Shown here in pieces: positions 1-6,202 of a DNA stretch of 20,855 nt. Positions within the stretch are counted from its first letter, which is position 1. Each line of letters opens with the position of its first letter. Both the position numbers and the translations under genes were made by a program. The DNA lies in IMG/VR virus record IMGVR_UViG_3300042691_014730, positions 1-20,855 of that record; one strand, written 5' to 3'. This stretch comes from a virus (Duplodnaviria > Heunggongvirae > Uroviricota > Caudoviricetes). The notes beneath the pieces were generated by a model. The model was not told the origin of the DNA. It did no database searches and saw only the letters and a program-made list of their open reading frames with translations.

Positions 1-22
1 TGCCTCCAAAATAGAAACAAAA

Positions 23-142
23 CTAACACGCTCCACTCACTAACCACTCACCTATATAGTACCCATACATATATACTTTGTATATAAAATAAAGTACTAA
101 TAATCCTAATAGTAATGACAATCCTCTTAATACATTAATCAT
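23..142 (-). CDS. 39-aa predicted single-pass membrane peptide (not in ORF track)
   Basis: Manual translation MINVLRGLSLLLGLLVLYFIYKVYMYGYYIGEWLVSGAC; GGAGG Shine-Dalgarno (SD); ATGA overlap with the stop of 139..330. Confidence 0.7.
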   Translation of the reverse strand: MINVLRGLSLLLGLLVLYFIYKVYMYGYYIGEWLVSGAC

Positions 143-330
143 AATTCCTCCAATGATATAATCATTATTATCCTAATTGCTTTAAGAAAAGTAGGTGAAT
201 AATCAAATTCATCACTCAAATAACTACCATTATTATATATCCCCCATAGGTTACCATTTAGCCATTCTATATTTTTTACAAAGTTATAACTAATCCCATC
301 GAAAGGTGAATTATATATTACTAGGTGCAT
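139..330 (-). CDS. hypothetical protein, 63 aa
   Basis: ORF track; AAGGAG SD upstream of ATG. Confidence 0.75.
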   Translation of the reverse strand: MHLVIYNSPFDGISYNFVKNIEWLNGNLWGIYNNGSYLSDEFDYSPTFLKAIRIIMIISLEEL

Positions 331-484
331 TAATAATCTCCTTATATATTAATAAGGCTAAGTACCTTACGTTTGATTGTCTTAATGTTATTGATGTATT
401 AATAAAATCATTTAACATAAAATCATTAGTGATAACATAAGGATATATTATCTTCTGTTTATTAAGACGTTGTTCTATAATCAT
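311..484 (-). CDS. hypothetical protein, 57 aa (not in ORF track)
   Basis: MIIEQRLNKQKIIYPYVITNDFMLNDFINTSITLRQSNVRYLALLIYKEIINAPSNI; ATGA overlap with the stop of 481..669, GAGG upstream; fills the gap. Confidence 0.65.
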   Translation of the reverse strand: MIIEQRLNKQKIIYPYVITNDFMLNDFINTSITLRQSNVRYLALLIYKEIINAPSNI

Positions 485-669
485 ACAGCCTCATTAATTA
501 TTTCAATAATATCTCCACCAATATCTAATGTCAAAGATTCTTTATTTAACTGGTCGTTAGTTAATGTGTAGTTATAAGAGTCCCACATATCTTTAATAAT
601 GTCCTCAACATTTGCAGTAAATATAAACATACTACCTGTTTGAGTTGTGATAATAATTTTCTTTTTCAT
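481..669 (-). CDS. hypothetical protein, 62 aa
   Basis: ORF track; AAGGA SD; ATGA coupling with 666..851. Confidence 0.75.
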   Translation of the reverse strand: MKKKIIITTQTGSMFIFTANVEDIIKDMWDSYNYTLTNDQLNKESLTLDIGGDIIEIINEAV

Positions 670-851
670 TTTAGTTTCCTTTGTGAAAGTTTAGTAAATC
701 CTAACTTAATAAAATAATTATATTGTGAATCAGACATATCGGTAATTCGGTACTTATTAGAAGAAGCCGAATAACAATAGGCTAGAATATTTTCACGTTT
801 TTCAAAGATCAATATTTTTTCTAAGATAGAATCCCAATATACTTCAATCAT
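666..851 (-). CDS. hypothetical protein, 61 aa
   Basis: ORF track; ATGA coupling at both ends. Confidence 0.7.
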   Translation of the reverse strand: MIEVYWDSILEKILIFEKRENILAYCYSASSNKYRITDMSDSQYNYFIKLGFTKLSQRKLK

Positions 852-1123
852 AATTTACTCACTTCATACACTACTATTCCCTTTAAATAATAATTATCAG
901 GAATAGGTTTGTAGTAATCTGCACTATAATAATATCCGTCTTTCAAAAGTTCATTATTATTTCCATAATTATAATACCATGTTTGATGATACGCAAATTG
1001 TTCTGGAATTCCATGTTGATTAGTTCTTCTATTGGAACTTATTGCATAACCTTGTTGTAATAACCACAACATATGAGCATGGTTATAACATATTATGTCT
1101 GTTTTAATTAACTTCATAACCAT
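848..1123 (-). CDS. hypothetical Tyr/Asn-rich protein, 91 aa
   Basis: ORF track; AAGG before start; TAATG coupling to the upstream ORF. Confidence 0.7.
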   Translation of the reverse strand: MVMKLIKTDIICYNHAHMLWLLQQGYAISSNRRTNQHGIPEQFAYHQTWYYNYGNNNELLKDGYYYSADYYKPIPDNYYLKGIVVYEVSKL

Positions 1124-1272
1124 TACCTTATTGCATTGATTGCATCTAATAAATTATTATAACTAATATTATTAACTAAGAACTTATTATATTTACAAAT
1201 AATAGCATTACCTTTATAAAATGATGTCCAGTGACCACGAATCATTGACCATTTAAGAGTTAGTTTCTTCAT
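1123..1272 (-). CDS. hypothetical protein, 49 aa (not in ORF track)
   Basis: MKKLTLKWSMIRGHWTSFYKGNAIICKYNKFLVNNISYNNLLDAINAIR; AGGAG SD; its TAA overlaps the next ATG. Confidence 0.7.
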   Translation of the reverse strand: MKKLTLKWSMIRGHWTSFYKGNAIICKYNKFLVNNISYNNLLDAINAIR

Positions 1273-1435
1273 AAAATTCTCCTATTTTAATATAATTAGA
1301 ACGATGTTTTATATGATGAATATATAGACTAGGATTAATTATATAATCAAGATTACTATCATATAATTTTGAATCATTTAAAATAATATAGTAATCACAA
1401 TTATAACAATTAAAATAAATTTCCATCATATACAC
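1253..1435 (-). CDS. hypothetical protein, about 60 aa, with CxxC
   Basis: ORF track; CYNC motif; the true start may be the ATG at 1429 or 1426. Confidence 0.65.
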   Translation of the reverse strand: MYMMEIYFNCYNCDYYIILNDSKLYDSNLDYIINPSLYIHHIKHRSNYIKIGEFYEETNS

Positions 1436-1569
1436 ACACTATTGTTATATCTAGCTTTAATAACTTTATCTTTTAATAACTTAAGTCTTGATCTAATATC
1501 AATATGGTGATCTTTTAATAACTTAAGAATCATAAGTTCTGTACGCAAAGCGTTTATATATGTAGTCAT
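1426..1569 (-). CDS. basic hypothetical protein, 47 aa (not in ORF track)
   Basis: MTTYINALRTELMILKLLKDHHIDIRSRLKLLKDKVIKARYNNSVCI; AGGAGG SD directly after the ligase stop. Confidence 0.7.
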   Translation of the reverse strand: MTTYINALRTELMILKLLKDHHIDIRSRLKLLKDKVIKARYNNSVCI

Positions 1570-1577
1570 AGTTCCTC

Positions 1578-2462
1578 CTATAAATCTATTTCATTTCTAA
1601 ATCCTTTAAACACTGGAAACCTAGGCTTATCCTTCATACCACTAGGTTGATATGTATATGTTATTAGTTTATTAACATACGTATTTTTATTATTCCATAT
1701 CATTGTTCTTAGTTCATCATTAAATCCTGTACCTATTTCAAATACAATACCACTATTAATATCTTGTACTTTAATAGAGCCAAGCTTACCAGTTGGTACT
1801 AAGTTTTCTTTATTAGAACTACGCTTAGTGTTACCTAAGTTATCAGTTACTGCTTCGTTATCATTACTCATCATCTCAGTGAAGTCTATTACTTTAGCCT
1901 CACTATCTTGAAATTGTTTTATCTTAATAAGAATCCCTTCTCTTAATGTAGACCTACCACATTTATATAAGGAATTAGGTTGTCTAATCATTACACCTTC
2001 ATAGTTATTATCTTGACACCATTGTTCATACATATTTAATTCTGTAACATTATTAATTTGTTTAGGTATAAGTGTTTGAATCCATGATTCGTTTTTGTGT
2101 ATAGGATTAGTTGTAAAGCGACTTAACATATCACTAACCCTAGCATAATATGGTCTATTAATATCAGTTACATAATCAAATATAACATAAGTAAAATCGG
2201 GCTCACCATCTTTACTCATTACTAAAGATTGTGTTTCATTGAATGTTTTATTAGGACATATAATTTCACCATCTAATCCATCAGGTAATGTTAATAGTTT
2301 ATTTCTTATATAGTCATTAGGTATATCAATAAACTTACGGGACAATACTTTACCATTAATTTTTAAACATCTAATACCATCTAACTTGGGTGTTGCTAAT
2401 ACAGGGAACTTAATATTATTAACGTCATCAATATTACAAGCGAGTAATGGTTTAGTTATCAT
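1578..2462 (-). CDS. lig: ATP-dependent DNA ligase, minimal Chlorella-virus-like type (NTase + OB fold with latch)
   Basis: Motif I TPKLDGIR (adenylated Lys), III DGEI, IIIa FDYV, IV EGVMIR, V LIKIK, OB-fold IGTGF, motif VI PRFPVFKGFR; AAGGAG SD. Confidence 0.96.
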   Translation of the reverse strand: MITKPLLACNIDDVNNIKFPVLATPKLDGIRCLKINGKVLSRKFIDIPNDYIRNKLLTLPDGLDGEIICPNKTFNETQSLVMSKDGEPDFTYVIFDYVTDINRPYYARVSDMLSRFTTNPIHKNESWIQTLIPKQINNVTELNMYEQWCQDNNYEGVMIRQPNSLYKCGRSTLREGILIKIKQFQDSEAKVIDFTEMMSNDNEAVTDNLGNTKRSSNKENLVPTGKLGSIKVQDINSGIVFEIGTGFNDELRTMIWNNKNTYVNKLITYTYQPSGMKDKPRFPVFKGFRNEIDL

Positions 2463-2649
2463 TTATTTCTCCTTGATTAGTTAAATCACAAACATATTTT
2501 AATAACCCACTTCTAAGATATGATATAATTGAATCATCACTCACATGAAACCAGTAATCACACCCACGACTAGTCCAAGATAAAAGAGATCTGGTCACAT
2601 CATATACTAAATATCTTCTATCACTTGTGTATAGATATAGCTTATACAT
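2452..2649 (-). CDS. hypothetical protein, 65 aa
   Basis: ORF track; GGAGG SD; TAATG coupling. Confidence 0.75.
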   Translation of the reverse strand: MYKLYLYTSDRRYLVYDVTRSLLSWTSRGCDYWFHVSDDSIISYLRSGLLKYVCDLTNQGEINDN

Positions 2650-2942
2650 TATACCTCCTGTTTACAATCAGGACAGTACCAGAATTGTAACGTTCTACTA
2701 ATAATATTATGATATTTTTTAGAGTGAGAACATGATTGTTGTATTTGTTGTACAGTTAATGTTATCGGTTCCGTTGTTACTAATCTAATATGTTTCATTT
2801 TATCTATAAACTCTATAACATTTATATTCTCAGTACTTGTATCAATATTGGTAATATGATAAAAGTCACCTGATACCTTGGTTATTCTATATTTATATAT
2901 ATCATTAGTTATAATATCTCCGACTTTATATTTAGGATTCAT
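2649..2942 (-). CDS. hypothetical protein with N-terminal SH3/KOW-like segment and C-terminal Zn-ribbon-like motif
   Basis: PKYKVGDII start typical of small beta-barrel phage proteins; C-terminal CSH...CPDC; GGAG SD. Confidence 0.7.
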   Translation of the reverse strand: MNPKYKVGDIITNDIYKYRITKVSGDFYHITNIDTSTENINVIEFIDKMKHIRLVTTEPITLTVQQIQQSCSHSKKYHNIISRTLQFWYCPDCKQEV

Positions 2943-3174
2943 TACTATCTCCTATTTTAGTTACTTCTTTAGGGTGAACATAAAAACGATCTCTATAACG
3001 TGAATGATATTCTTGATTGTATGATGTTAAAAAATGAACAATCAACTTAGAACTATTTTCTTGTCTAACCACAATACCAATATCACCTAAGTAATAACCA
3101 CCATAACAAGAATCATATTCTTCGGAATGACCATCACAATTTATAATTTGTATTATATCTCCTGCTTTAAGCAT
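2932..3174 (-). CDS. hypothetical protein, 80 aa (SH3/KOW-like)
   Basis: GGAGG SD; LKAGDIIQII...GDIGIVV...LIVHF pattern. Confidence 0.7.
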   Translation of the reverse strand: MLKAGDIIQIINCDGHSEEYDSCYGGYYLGDIGIVVRQENSSKLIVHFLTSYNQEYHSRYRDRFYVHPKEVTKIGDSNES

Positions 3175-3188
3175 ATTACCTCCATTAG

Positions 3189-3272
3189 TTAAAATGTTTT
3201 AACGGATAAAGATATAACGTGAAGGTAAGATGCCAGTACAATAATCCAGAAGGTTACATAATATTTAAGCAT
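3189..3272 (-). CDS. 27-aa hydrophobic peptide directly downstream of hammerhead 1 (not in ORF track)
   Basis: MLKYYVTFWIIVLASYLHVISLSVKTF; AGGAG SD 5 nt before ATG. Confidence 0.65.
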   Translation of the reverse strand: MLKYYVTFWIIVLASYLHVISLSVKTF

Positions 3273-3289
3273 AGTTACTCCTATTGTTT

Positions 3290-3349
3290 GGACTCATCAG
3301 GATAGACCTAATCTATCTACGTCCCCTAATTCTAAGGGACGTTTCGTCC
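3290..3349 (-). ncRNA. hammerhead ribozyme 1 (type II)
   Basis: Minus-strand RNA: GGAC-GAAA-CGUCCCUU(AGAAUU)AGGGGACG-UA^GAUAGA(UUAGG)UCUAUC-CUGAUGA-GUCC. Full core (CUGAUGA, GAAA, GUA triplet); stem I 6 bp, stem II 4 bp, stem III 9 bp. Predicted cut between 3318 and 3317. Confidence 0.9.
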
Positions 3350-3421
3350 TTATCCCCTTCTAATCATTAAGAATTGTATTAGTGGTAGGGTTAAAAATAA
3401 TAATATGATTACATAATCCAT
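3350..3421 (-). CDS. 23-aa hydrophobic peptide ending at the 5' edge of hammerhead 1 (not in ORF track)
   Basis: MDYVIILLFLTLPLIQFLMIRRG; ATG overlaps the tandem TAA stops of the upstream gene; weak SD. Confidence 0.5.
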   Translation of the reverse strand: MDYVIILLFLTLPLIQFLMIRRG

Positions 3422-3423
3422 TA

Positions 3424-3738
3424 TTACCCAACCATTTTATTAGGATTAAATGCTTTAATAGGTTTTCTTTTTAATTGTTCTTTATTAGCTTCTACAAAAG
3501 CATCAATCTTATCAAGGTTAGCTTTAAGCTTCTCATATTGTTCAATAAACATATTAACTGGGAAGTTACCACCTAATCCTTTAATAGTTAAGCCACCACC
3601 TTTATTAACTTCTACCCTTACTTCTTCACGCACTAAGCTGTTAAGAATCCTTAATTGTTCTTGTTGTTTTTGAATTTCTTCTTTAAGAGCTTGTGCTTCT
3701 TGTTGTAATTGTTGTGCAGTTTTAGTTGATGTTGTCAT
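3424..3738 (-). CDS. coiled-coil + small beta/alpha domain protein, 104 aa
   Basis: AAGGAG SD; N-terminal Q/E/K-rich coiled coil; KGGGLTIKGLGGNFPVNMFIEQYEKL resembles, from memory, a widespread small bacterial/phage family (KGxVSVYGLGRFPVTLYxEQW). Confidence 0.8.
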   Translation of the reverse strand: MTTSTKTAQQLQQEAQALKEEIQKQQEQLRILNSLVREEVRVEVNKGGGLTIKGLGGNFPVNMFIEQYEKLKANLDKIDAFVEANKEQLKRKPIKAFNPNKMVG

Positions 3739-3784
3739 AAATACTCCTTTAGTGACGTTAAGTCACGTTGTTAATTGATTGTTC

Positions 3785-3838
3785 TGGTGTTTCGTCTTAT
3801 TAAGACTCATCAGCCTAGGTTAAATCCTAGGGACACCA
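3785..3838 (-). ncRNA. hammerhead ribozyme 2 (type III)
   Basis: Minus-strand RNA: UGGUGUC^CCUAGG(AUUUAA)CCUAGG-CUGAUGA-GUCUU(AAU)AAGAC-GAA-ACACCA. Canonical core, GUC triplet; stem I 6 bp, stem II 5 bp, stem III 6 bp. Predicted cut between 3832 and 3831. Confidence 0.95.
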
Positions 3839-3839
3839 A

Positions 3840-4132
3840 GGATAAGAGTACGTTACCTCATACTCCTATCCTAGTGATCCTCAGTATGCTGTTATCCTGT
3901 CCTAGTACAATAACCTAGGAGTTCTTATGGCATACCAAGGTACTCTAAGTTTTCTCGGTTTTTCCGAGCTATACCATATAGGTACTTAGAGTGAATGAAG
4001 TTACTTCTCGCTAAGATAGTTCTCGCTATCGAAGTCCATAACTCCCAACGGCTTATGTCTAAAGCAGTTACTATCCGTCTAGCCCAACAGTCAAGCTGTT
4101 AGCCCTTTTATAGTAACCTATGTCTTGTTACC
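3840..4132 (-). ncRNA. unassigned highly structured RNA (about 290 nt)
   Basis: ORF-free. Helices read by eye: 4117-4110/4074-4067 (8 bp), 3992-3984/3950-3942 (9 bp closing a 3-way junction), 3940-3930/3889-3879 (11 bp enclosing a possible pseudoknot), 3871-3861/3850-3840 (11 bp). Confidence 0.65.
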
Positions 4133-4417
4133 TTAGATAAACGCTATACCATTTTCAACTTTAGTCAAGGTTATAGCTTGTTTATTAAGTAACTTCTTAA
4201 GTCTATTGACCTCGGCGATTAGTTTTTCTTTAGAGCTTTTGCCCTTAAGATAGAAGCCTCGTCTAAATAAACTTATATCACTAGGGCAGTTAGTTTTAAC
4301 GTACCCTGAGTTAAACACTTTTTTGTTAGCTATAACGTCTTGACGTTTTATAGCGTTTTGTTTATACCCTACATTAGCCCTTTTACAAGCTAATGCAGTT
4401 TTACTTAATGTTCTCAT
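4133..4417 (-). CDS. basic hypothetical protein, 94 aa, possibly nucleic-acid binding
   Basis: ORF track; AGGAG SD 11 nt upstream, inside hammerhead 3 stem III; about 21 K/R versus 5 D/E by my count. Confidence 0.75.
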   Translation of the reverse strand: MRTLSKTALACKRANVGYKQNAIKRQDVIANKKVFNSGYVKTNCPSDISLFRRGFYLKGKSSKEKLIAEVNRLKKLLNKQAITLTKVENGIAFI

Positions 4418-4430
4418 AAGTTAAGTTACT

Positions 4431-4486
4431 CCTATTTCGAGTCAAAAGACTCATCATCAGTAGGGACTCAATTATCCCTAGATAGG
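4431..4486 (-). ncRNA. hammerhead ribozyme 3 (type III, extra U between A9 and G10.1)
   Basis: Minus-strand RNA: CCUAUC^UAGGGA(UAAUUGAG)UCCCUA-CUGAUGA-U-GAGUC(UUUU)GACUC-GAA-AUAGG. AUC triplet; stem I 6 bp, stem II 5 bp, stem III 5 bp. Predicted cut between 4481 and 4480. Confidence 0.8.
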
Positions 4487-4556
4487 GAGAGTTAGTGTTA
4501 GCTAACTCCCAATTAGGTTACTAAGTAATATTATAGCGAGAGAGATTTTTATAATA

Positions 4557-4754
4557 TTAGCTAGCATGGTTATCCATTTTTTCAAGTTCCCATAATTTCT
4601 CATAAGCACTATAGTGTGAATAACAAATTATTTCTTCTTTTTCAGATTCATGATTTTTAAAGTATATTACTTTATACAAGTTATTATACTTATCATAGAT
4701 TATTTTACATAAGAATCCAGTATTTACATTAGTTACTTGTTTAAGAAATATCAT
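4557..4754 (-). CDS. hypothetical protein, 65 aa; first ORF of the leftward arm
   Basis: ORF track; GGAG SD. Confidence 0.75.
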   Translation of the reverse strand: MIFLKQVTNVNTGFLCKIIYDKYNNLYKVIYFKNHESEKEEIICYSHYSAYEKLWELEKMDNHAS

Positions 4755-4871
4755 GTTTACTCCAGTTTTATATATACTTGAATGTATATATTTTATTTAT
4801 TTTTGTATCTCAGCTTGTCAGGCTGATGCCGAGCTAACATTCAAGCCCAATGCCAACTGCTTTTCTGAACA

Positions 4872-4993
4872 AAATCAAGCACTTAGCCTCGGTTCACAAT
4901 GACACCAGTGTCAAAACGCCACCGACTTCGGAGTCAAAACGCCACTAAACGTGGTATCAAAATGCACCAGTACCAACGAAATCAATGACTTAG
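4872..4993. repeat. three 23-bp-period direct repeats bracketed by a second 15-bp direct repeat
   Basis: GTCAAAACGCCAC at 4910 and 4933, variant ATCAAAATGCACC at 4956; AAATCAAGCACTTAG (4872-4886) and AAATCAATGACTTAG (4979-4993). Confidence 0.8.
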
Positions 4994-5035
4994 AGCTAAG
5001 TACCTGATTTCTCGTAGGTGAATATAAGAACACCC

Positions 5036-5184
5036 ATGCGTGTGTTTAATACCTGCGTGTGCGTAACGTGTGCGTGTAGCGTGTGTGCGAGCGTATGTGT
5101 GCGTATGCACGAGCGTGTGCGTAACGTGTGTGCGCATAATGCGTGCGTAGGCGTGTGTGGGTGCGTTTGCGTAGGGGGGTAGGG
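5036..5184. repeat. alternating purine/pyrimidine (GT/GC) low-complexity tract ending in a G-run
   Basis: Mostly GTGTGCGT-type sequence; 18-bp GCGTGTGCGTAACGTGTG at 5055 and 5113; GGGGGGTAGGG at 5174-5184. Confidence 0.9.
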
Positions 5185-5409
5185 ACGTTTCAGGATATGC
5201 CTGACATTGACCGAGTACACTCTCCCACTTTACCCTCTCAACTATAGAAACTCTCCAACACTCACCTACTTATCCTTCAACGCTTCTAATAACAACTCTT
5301 AGTACATTAGCCCTTAAAACGCACAGAAATAGGGTTATTTAACATCGTATTAGCACACCCTAATACTTAGTATAAAAGTCATTACTCAACGTTTAAAAGG
5401 ATTCTGACG

Positions 5410-6021
5410 ATGATTAGTATATTGGACGTTAGTATTATTAACCAGATTCCTAAAGAAGGCATAATAGCCTTTATAAACGATTCTGATAAAAAGGTATTAA
5501 TCGTACAGGGTAGTAATTTATTAGCTCTCCTAGGGCGTATTATGAGCGAATTACAACAAGGTATTTATACACACCAAGAGGTTATAGAAGATTATAATAA
5601 ACTAAAGATAGTAGTTCTAGAAACACAATCGGACATCACAATTAGGTACTTACAGATGTCATACTGGTATGATTACTTCGTTAATAACGGTTATACGCTG
5701 TATTCAAAGACTAAGTACTCAGTATATAGGGTAAGATCAAGAATCGTGTATAAACGAATAGGAAGCACGTTAATGAACGTAAATGTTGAACTAGTTAGTA
5801 CTAGAGGTAATACGATATTAGTAGGAGTATTTAAAACAATGTTAGAAGCTAATGAGTTTATAGAAACTTATTACAGTCAAACTACTAATCAGTATAAGCT
5901 TCCAATACTAGCTAATAACGATTTGACAAAAGCTTACTACCAAGATAAAACGAGTCGAAGGAGCGAAGCGACTGACGCAGTTACCTATGGGTTGGTAGAT
6001 AGTACGTTAGAAAAAATCTAA
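5410..6021 (+). CDS. hypothetical protein with degenerate GIY-YIG-like N-terminal domain
   Basis: AAGGA SD; GIIAFIN..KKVLIVQGSNL..L ... IVVLE ... YWYDYF.NNGY follows the GIY-YIG pattern but lacks the catalytic residues. Confidence 0.6.
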   Translation: MISILDVSIINQIPKEGIIAFINDSDKKVLIVQGSNLLALLGRIMSELQQGIYTHQEVIEDYNKLKIVVLETQSDITIRYLQMSYWYDYFVNNGYTLYSKTKYSVYRVRSRIVYKRIGSTLMNVNVELVSTRGNTILVGVFKTMLEANEFIETYYSQTTNQYKLPILANNDLTKAYYQDKTSRRSEATDAVTYGLVDSTLEKI

Positions 6022-6086
6022 ATTCCAAACAAGTTGTTATTTAGGTACACATTTACTTATATGTATAGTTTATATGTATAGGCAAC

Positions 6087-6145
6087 ATTCTGACCCACCT
6101 TGTGGGCATATTTTGACCCACCTCTGGGCATATTCTGACCCACCT
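6087..6145 (+). repeat. three iteron-like direct repeats (22-23 bp period)
   Basis: ATTYTGACCCACCT at 6087, 6110 and 6132, joined by (T)GTGGGC/CTGGGC-type spacers ending in AT. Confidence 0.9.
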
Positions 6146-6173
6146 AAAGGTGATTATTTTGTGTAAAAAGTGC

Positions 6174-6202
6174 TTGACAAAAAACTAAAAGTGTGGTATT
6201 AT
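6174..6202 (+). promoter_or_regulatory. sigma70-type promoter with extended -10
   Basis: TTGACA (6174-6179), 17-bp spacer, TG-n-TATTAT (6197-6202), upstream of the AAGGGAG SD and the ATG at 6227. Confidence 0.85.

Follow-up and report, generated by a model that had tools for sequence, protein, structure and literature searches.

Conserved hammerhead motifs and a structured RNA in the leftward small-gene array of a freshwater tailed phage

The DNA analysed here (hereafter, the window) comprises the first 20,855 nucleotides (nt) of an 84,855-nt tailed-phage record in IMG/VR (IMGVR_UViG_3300042691_014730; CheckV completeness estimate 100%), and its leftward gene array contains three hammerhead ribozyme motifs and a structured non-coding RNA. 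The array (genes 139–4754) is built from small open reading frames (ORFs) and an ATP-dependent DNA ligase gene that are tightly packed and otherwise without gaps. The three hammerheads (HH1–HH3) lie in gaps of this array within 1.2 kb, all on the minus strand, as are the ORFs named below. Following the direction of the array, ORF A (65 amino acids [aa], 4557–4754) is the first gene and is located upstream of HH1. ORF B (94 aa, isoelectric point [pI] 10.4, 4133–4417) is placed between HH1 and the structured RNA, and ORF C (104 aa, 3424–3738) is found downstream of HH2. Two short hydrophobic frames flank HH3: a mini-ORF of 23 codons (3350–3421), the stop codon of which abuts the ribozyme, and an ORF of 27 codons (3189–3272), which is the first cistron after it. 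Both have counterparts in a sister phage described below, where the mini-ORF has 24 codons. No match for the small ORFs was found in Pfam or PHROGs.

HH1 (4486–4431; predicted cut 4481/4480) is a type III hammerhead in which CCUAU and AUAGG form stem III, C17 is at 4481, UAGGGA and UCCCUA form stem I, the core contains CUGAUGA, and stem II (GAGUC/GACUC) is followed by GAA. The 3' strand of its stem III (4435–4431) overlaps the AGGAG Shine-Dalgarno (SD) sequence of ORF B (4433–4429). HH2 (3839–3784; predicted cut 3832/3831) is also of type III and has a canonical core, with stem III UUGGUGU/ACACCAG, C17 at 3832, stem I CCUAGG/CCUAGG, CUGAUGA, and stem II GUCUU/AAGAC followed by GAA. HH3 (3349–3290; predicted cut 3318/3317, A17) belongs to type II, and its parts occur in the order GGAC, GAA, stem III (ACGUCCC.. 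paired with ..GGGGACGU), A17 at 3318, stem I (GAUAGA/UCUAUC), CUGAUGA, and GUCC; stem II is open and consists of 4 base pairs (bp; GUCC/GGAC). Because HH3 begins right after the stop codon (3352–3350) of the 23-codon mini-ORF, a ribosome terminating there would cover the 5' half of the ribozyme. All three motifs carry C3 U4 G5 A6 N7 G8 A9, G12 A13 A14, the A15.1-U16.1 pair, and an H17 that is not G. The initial annotation of this DNA, made from the sequence alone, had described three complete hammerheads at these positions, with unrelated stems that exclude simple duplication, each in an intergenic region and with 63, 93, and 45 nt from the cut to the following ATG (HH1–HH3, respectively). All of these points hold when the sequence is read again, and the motif descriptor and the folding predictions support the three motifs.

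Using our own descriptor, which covers all three hammerhead topologies, HH1–HH3 were the sole matches on both strands of the 84,855 nt, and 100 dinucleotide-shuffled genomes gave a mean of 0.09 matches per genome (maximum 1). The minimum-free-energy (MFE) fold of each isolated motif is the canonical three-way junction (z-score −2.9 to −3.8), and MFE and centroid structures are canonical in HH1–HH3 as well as in their three sister-phage copies. In Rfam comparisons, the hammerhead model RF00008 scored HH2 at 46.7 bits (gathering score 48.5; E-value 1.4e-7) and HH1 at 25.7 bits (E-value 0.13 in the whole window and 0.005 locally). The gathering score is a statistical cut-off and not a structural feature, and HH3, which the type II model RF02276 does not recognise, was accepted on descriptor, fold, and covariation instead. 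In the remaining 64 kb of the genome, no further ribozyme was found with Rfam at E-values ≤0.05, and the phage has no transfer RNA (tRNA) at this threshold.

The sister phage (L004, an 84.4-kb IMG/VR record; L009 and L010 are of the same lineage) shares its gene order with the window phage, with 62% identity in the ligase and 89% in the terminase, and holds all three hammerheads at the same junctions. The ORFs of the two phages are 68–74% identical at the nucleotide level; HH2 is only 57% identical overall, yet every pair is kept. A total of 52 pairs could be compared in the core-anchored helices, comprising 36 identical pairs, 15 with changes on both sides, one with a one-sided change, and none broken. 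The cores differ at N7 and H17 only, which are free positions. Given 15 compensatory pair changes, no broken pair, and otherwise invariant cores, the comparison of these two lineages provides strong evidence that the hammerhead fold is under selection, and it supplies the covariation and synteny in a related phage that the initial annotation had named as a check. Searches with ORF B, ORF C, the ligase, and the terminase (IMG/VR and a metagenome scan) retrieved the sister lineage alone. Contigs from four metagenome runs were identical to the window and thus added no covariation, and the INPHARED phage collection showed no DNA similarity to the phage. In the sister phage, about 830 nt with four ORFs that are absent from the window phage (L004 4414–5241) are located directly after HH3 and before the homologue of the 27-codon ORF, and this ribozyme therefore borders a break point in gene content.

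Within the 394 nt that separate ORF B from ORF C, a structured non-coding RNA of about 290 nt (3840–4135, minus strand) with 40% GC, compared to 32% in the genome, is located upstream of HH2. It folds much more stably than shuffled sequences (z-score about −5 to −6), and 18 of the 63 consensus pairs shared with the sister phage were changed on both sides. The first helix of this RNA includes the stop codon of ORF B and the last helix (3872–3840) abuts HH2, so that HH2 would make the 3' end of the RNA. Rfam contains no family for it, and an exact search with its conserved block returned the sister phage only.

Hairpins are predicted at the ends of all cleavage products. A 9-bp hairpin (4510–4487, minus strand) abuts stem III of HH1 without a spacer and is the predicted 3' end of the upstream product; by a reading of the two sequences, four of its pairs differ from the sister phage in both bases. 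The 13–14-bp hairpin that closes the structured RNA (3872–3840) likewise has no spacer before HH2 and covaries with the sister phage, whereas in HH3, a type II hammerhead, stem III itself would remain on the upstream product. Accordingly, each predicted upstream piece terminates in a hairpin followed by a short tail. The predicted downstream pieces start paired at stem I, and the probability that their first four nucleotides are unpaired is 0.05, 0.01, and 0.26 for HH1–HH3, respectively. Predicted SD accessibility increases upon cleavage of HH1 (0.33 to 0.56), but not of HH2 (0.66 to 0.52) or HH3 (0.43 to 0.31). SD release by cleavage was consequently rejected as a general mechanism, being predicted for HH1 only. 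Between HH2 and the SD of ORF C there is a further covarying hairpin of 5 bp (3766–3752, minus strand).

More distant relatives were identified through terminase homologues (53–61% identical) and are phages of about 80–90 kb with the same layout. More than 1,800 terminase homologues were counted for this phage family. The first ORF on their leftward strand encodes a basic protein (83–94 aa, pI about 10) that is distantly related to ORF B, based on weak pairwise BLAST chains and a coherent alignment. This family shares a G-[FH]-[YF]-x-K motif and a C-terminal basic strand, and has no Pfam or PHROGs match. No homologues of ORF B and ORF C beyond the sister lineage were found among 5.8 billion proteins, nor of ORF B among 1.84 billion representative proteins, and an AlphaFold2 model of ORF B from an eight-sequence alignment was poor (predicted local distance difference test score 60.6; predicted template modelling score 0.31). 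In the relatives, the basic-protein gene precedes a ribozyme-fenced segment either directly or one small ORF away (L026).

The elements at the borders of this segment vary among lineages. In L020 and L023, the leftward order is basic ORF, type II hammerhead, 270–275 ORF-free nt, and type III hammerhead (RF00008 36.1 bits in L023). L025 keeps this order, its gap is longer, and its type III hammerhead is weakened; its type II copy has a long insertion in stem III, and its type III copy has a U-U at 10.1/11.1. In L021, the basic ORF and a type II hammerhead are followed by about 400 nt and a tRNA-Glu (4374–4445, minus strand), which occupies the place of the 3' border ribozyme of other lineages. 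Candidate twister ribozymes occur in two lineages, at positions that match those of the hammerheads elsewhere: one in L024 (6424–6478, minus strand) directly after the basic ORF, and two in L026 (2896–2966 and 2567–2626, minus strand) that bracket 269 ORF-free nt and are separated from the basic ORF by a further ORF of 58 aa. No ribozyme was found at the L027 locus, and the L022 locus is truncated by the contig end. Over the relatives' loci, the descriptor yielded six strict matches versus about 0.2 expected false ones, all leftward and near the head of the operon; a match in L024 at a relaxed threshold lies inside a coding gene and was treated as a false positive. When folded and compared with shuffles, the ORF-free segments gave z-scores of −4.8 (L023) and −3.1 (L026). 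A tRNA-Met is also present in L025 (581–658, minus strand), inside the leftward small-gene array.

Based on these results, we propose, with a probability of roughly 60%, that HH1–HH3 are active cis-cleaving ribozymes which process the leftward transcript, that HH2 ends the structured RNA, and that the resulting pieces have separate fates; cleavage, transcription, the effect on stability, and a function of the RNA are what we infer. The ribozymes would cut the transcript during its synthesis at 4481/4480, 3832/3831, and 3318/3317. Each upstream piece would have a stable hairpin at its end together with a 2',3'-cyclic phosphate, with the hairpin provided by a separate element (type III) or by the ribozyme's own stem III (type II), and each downstream piece would start at the stem I hairpin with no unpaired nucleotide, carrying a 5'-OH. 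HH2 would form the 3' end of the approximately 290-nt RNA that follows ORF B, a role that would recur across the relatives, and HH1 and HH3 would detach two units from what adjoins them, namely ORF B plus the RNA, and ORF C. Each detached piece would thereby gain its own lifetime and translation. The cutting of a polycistron into hairpin-capped pieces is a reasonable reading because the motifs are real, co-oriented, and under selection, because no leftward intrinsic terminator is predicted in 1–6200, and because the ends of the products are hairpins. It has already been published for clustered prophage hammerheads (PMC3088659).

Several observations weigh against this proposal. No match in the window reaches the Rfam gathering level, all three hammerheads being below it, and the type II model RF02276 does not match HH3 at E-values ≤10. 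The core of HH1 has one surplus U (4453) between A9 and G10.1. In HH3, no pseudoknot of at least 4 bp between loop I and the 3' tail was found by reading the sequence, although most type II hammerheads carry one (PMC3088659). Among the listed sequencing runs that hold phage sequence, none is an RNA run. In both the window phage and the sister phage, there is no ribozyme between ORF B and the structured RNA, which means that the RNA would not be released by itself in these two phages, in contrast to L020, L023, and L026. A search with nhmmer using the structured RNA of the window and of L004 gave no match in the other lineages, a covariance model (R1) returned only noise across lineage groups (E-values ≥0.07), and it is an assumption that all relatives carry the same RNA. 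The candidate twisters scored far below the gathering level: those in L024 and L026 included matches to RF03160 of 38.2 and 31.5 bits (gathering 67.2; E-values 8.6e-5 and 0.007), and the third matched RF03154 at 25.7 bits (gathering 39.9; E-value 0.6).

In the window phage and its sister, the border ribozyme on the 5' side (HH1) is upstream of ORF B, so the unit set free would comprise the ORF B messenger RNA (mRNA) and the structured RNA. The border elements of the relatives point to RNA maturation rather than only mRNA punctuation. Because ribozymes recur at the border of a structured RNA, and because the processing element is interchangeable, the comparison is an argument that selection acts on defined RNA ends. 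A broader version of our proposal is tentative: a freshwater phage family (~80–90 kb) that is widespread may possess a conserved early module, consisting of a gene for a basic protein (83–94 aa) and a 270–400-nt RNA with ends made by interchangeable type II or III hammerheads, twisters, or a tRNA, in which the released RNA, possibly protein-bound, is the functional product. Near-identical copies of the window phage DNA are present in freshwater metagenomes from 13 studies. If this module exists, phage hammerheads would be given a concrete job, the maturation of a non-coding RNA, whereas most genomic ribozymes were considered functional orphans in a 2019 review in Nucleic Acids Research.

It is rather unlikely that mRNA punctuation is the sole selected role, in which case the ribozymes would produce single-gene mRNAs that resist decay through their 5'-OH, and the structured RNA would be a long 3' untranslated region. 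An SD and an ATG are present downstream of each ribozyme, both products are hairpin-ended, HH1 cleavage increases the predicted SD accessibility, and this role corresponds to the published hypothesis for prophage clusters (PMC3088659). In addition, RiboJ, an engineered element in which the hammerhead from tobacco ringspot virus satellite RNA (sTRSV) and a 23-nt hairpin sit 5' of a gene, increases mRNA levels about 2-fold and protein levels 2–10-fold in E. coli, and its cleavage standardises the 5' end (PMC6206723). However, accessibility does not increase after HH2 or HH3 cleavage, the majority of intergenic junctions in this array lack a ribozyme, and the ribozymes of the relatives are concentrated at the borders of ORF-free segments, one of which is a tRNA. 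Resistance of a 5'-OH to decay also depends on the host, since this end is a degradation signal for RNase J1: the 5'-OH product of the glmS ribozyme is an RNase J1 substrate that is rapidly degraded, according to Collins et al. 2007 as described in PMC3328962. The initial annotation had suggested that an early polycistron is cut into hairpin-capped mRNAs protected by their 5'-OH. The hairpins at both ends and the lack of a predicted terminator between the genes agree with this, but resistance of 5'-OH ends to decay is contradicted by the glmS product and is not general, and the terms 'early' and 'one transcript' were derived from gene layout only and are not supported as stated. Protection, if any, is more likely due to the base-paired 5' end than to the 5'-OH, which by analogy would be consistent with the mRNA levels raised by RiboJ in E. 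coli (PMC6206723). The widespread view that a 5'-OH by itself protects an RNA is thus corrected.

An improbable explanation is that the hammerheads are junction elements travelling with mobile small-gene cassettes, with cleavage being incidental to fitness. The four-ORF segment of about 830 nt after HH3 in the sister phage fits this idea, as do the differences in ribozyme type and position among the relatives and the report of Perreault et al. that the genes flanking prophage hammerheads are not constant (PMC3088659). Nevertheless, the compensatory changes, invariant cores, and identical junctions, set against about 30% divergence of the surrounding sequence, imply purifying selection on catalytic competence.

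A role in making RNA circles or spliced RNAs, with the fragments between ribozymes joined by host RtcB or by a phage kinase-type enzyme and an RNA ligase, appears highly improbable. Chemically, the ends would suit such joining, and genes of the phage specify an RNA ligase (PF09414, 88 bits; 62441–63115, minus strand) and an AAA_33 kinase-type protein (47 bits; 65377–65667, minus strand), which could in principle act on ribozyme-made 5'-OH and cyclic-phosphate ends. Perreault et al., however, sought spliced or circular products and found none (PMC3088659). A chimeric hammerhead holding the ends for self-ligation was likewise rejected, since the stem III strands that remain on the fragments show no complementarity (as read, UUGGUGU of the HH2 5' strand versus AUAGG of the HH1 3' strand). 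We give just as little credence to non-cleaving look-alikes, which would account for scores below the Rfam gathering level, the core insertion of HH1, and the absence of an evident stem I/II tertiary contact in HH3, but not for three motifs within 1.2 kb on one strand where 0.09 per genome are expected by chance, nor for 15 compensatory changes with none disruptive, and an extra U at the core position concerned is compatible with fast cleavage in the (+) hammerhead of chrysanthemum chlorotic mottle viroid, which is known to have an extra nucleotide there, with U being well tolerated and the fastest variant (PMC3705267).

Among known systems, the closest to our proposal are the clustered prophage hammerheads of Perreault et al. 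2011, for which transcript processing was proposed. Triple arrangements occur in Clostridium scindens, Azorhizobium caulinodans, and Agrobacterium tumefaciens, and triple clusters cleave in vitro (PMC3088659). Like the locus described here, those clusters place two or three hammerheads that differ in topology (I, II, III) on the same strand within about 2 kb, in intergenic regions of phage genes of largely unassigned function, and their proposed role is to cut long phage transcripts to operon- or gene-length RNAs. Unlike in the prophage clusters, one ribozyme of the window phage bounds a conserved structured non-coding RNA and not a gene, the type III ribozymes each have an abutting covarying hairpin upstream, and at the corresponding borders relatives have candidate twisters or a tRNA instead; here, cleavage is predicted. 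Clustered phage hammerheads and the proposed transcript processing were therefore already known, and this locus leaves the concept unchanged while offering a clean comparative case. What is new is that both cleavage products end in covarying hairpins, and that hammerheads, candidate twisters, and a tRNA fence a structured RNA in the relatives, a pattern that turns vague 'mRNA processing' into specific experiments.

In the early region of phage T7, host RNase III cuts double-stranded hairpins and leaves 5'-phosphate and 3'-OH ends. The initial annotation regarded the hammerheads as a protein-free equivalent of these sites, which is valid as a functional analogy: in both cases the cuts are intercistronic and hairpins are located at the product ends. 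The resemblance is functional only, because the elements are hammerhead junctions and not RNase III substrates, and the RNA would cut itself to leave 5'-OH and 2',3'-cyclic phosphate ends. The combination of HH2, the hairpin at 3766–3752, and AGGAG resembles RiboJ in that a hammerhead and a hairpin are placed just before an SD; RiboJ is engineered and positioned after a promoter, whereas the elements here are natural and inside a polycistron. Similarly, glmS self-cleavage generates a downstream mRNA with a 5'-OH, but the 5' end in the phage is predicted to be base-paired, which may block RNase J1 decay. Twister, pistol, and hatchet ribozymes share genetic contexts with bacterial hammerheads, and cyPhyRNA-seq on D. 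vulgaris cells identified active type II hammerheads close to phage-like genes (PMC8782182). The candidate twisters of L024 and L026, at hammerhead junctions of other lineages, are in line with such shared contexts; unlike twister systems, their matches are below the Rfam gathering level and the window has no twister.

Beyond the head of the leftward array, terminase and portal genes follow rightward from 5410. The non-coding stretch upstream of this array (4755–5420, minus strand) is 83% identical to the sister phage, compared to 68–74% for the ORFs. It contains a leader (about 255 nt) that is conserved and carries two GGTGGCGTTTTGAC direct repeats (~4945–4905) and, at ~5050–5200, degenerate CACACGC-type repeats that are GC-rich (up to 58%). 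This region may serve as an origin, as a cluster of operators, or as a leader RNA. A candidate sigma-70-like promoter for the leftward array (TAAACA, 16 nt, TATATT; 5021–5048, minus strand) is kept in the sister phage and is located about 255 nt upstream of ORF A. A 22-nt terminal repeat of the genome record (32% GC overall) resembles the overlap of a circular assembly. Just after HH2, a conserved TTAACAACGT box (3774–3765, minus strand) is kept in both lineages. This box resembles the TTAACAACT box, which was found seven times upstream of rightward late genes, and on that account a promoter internal to the leftward array may be located there.

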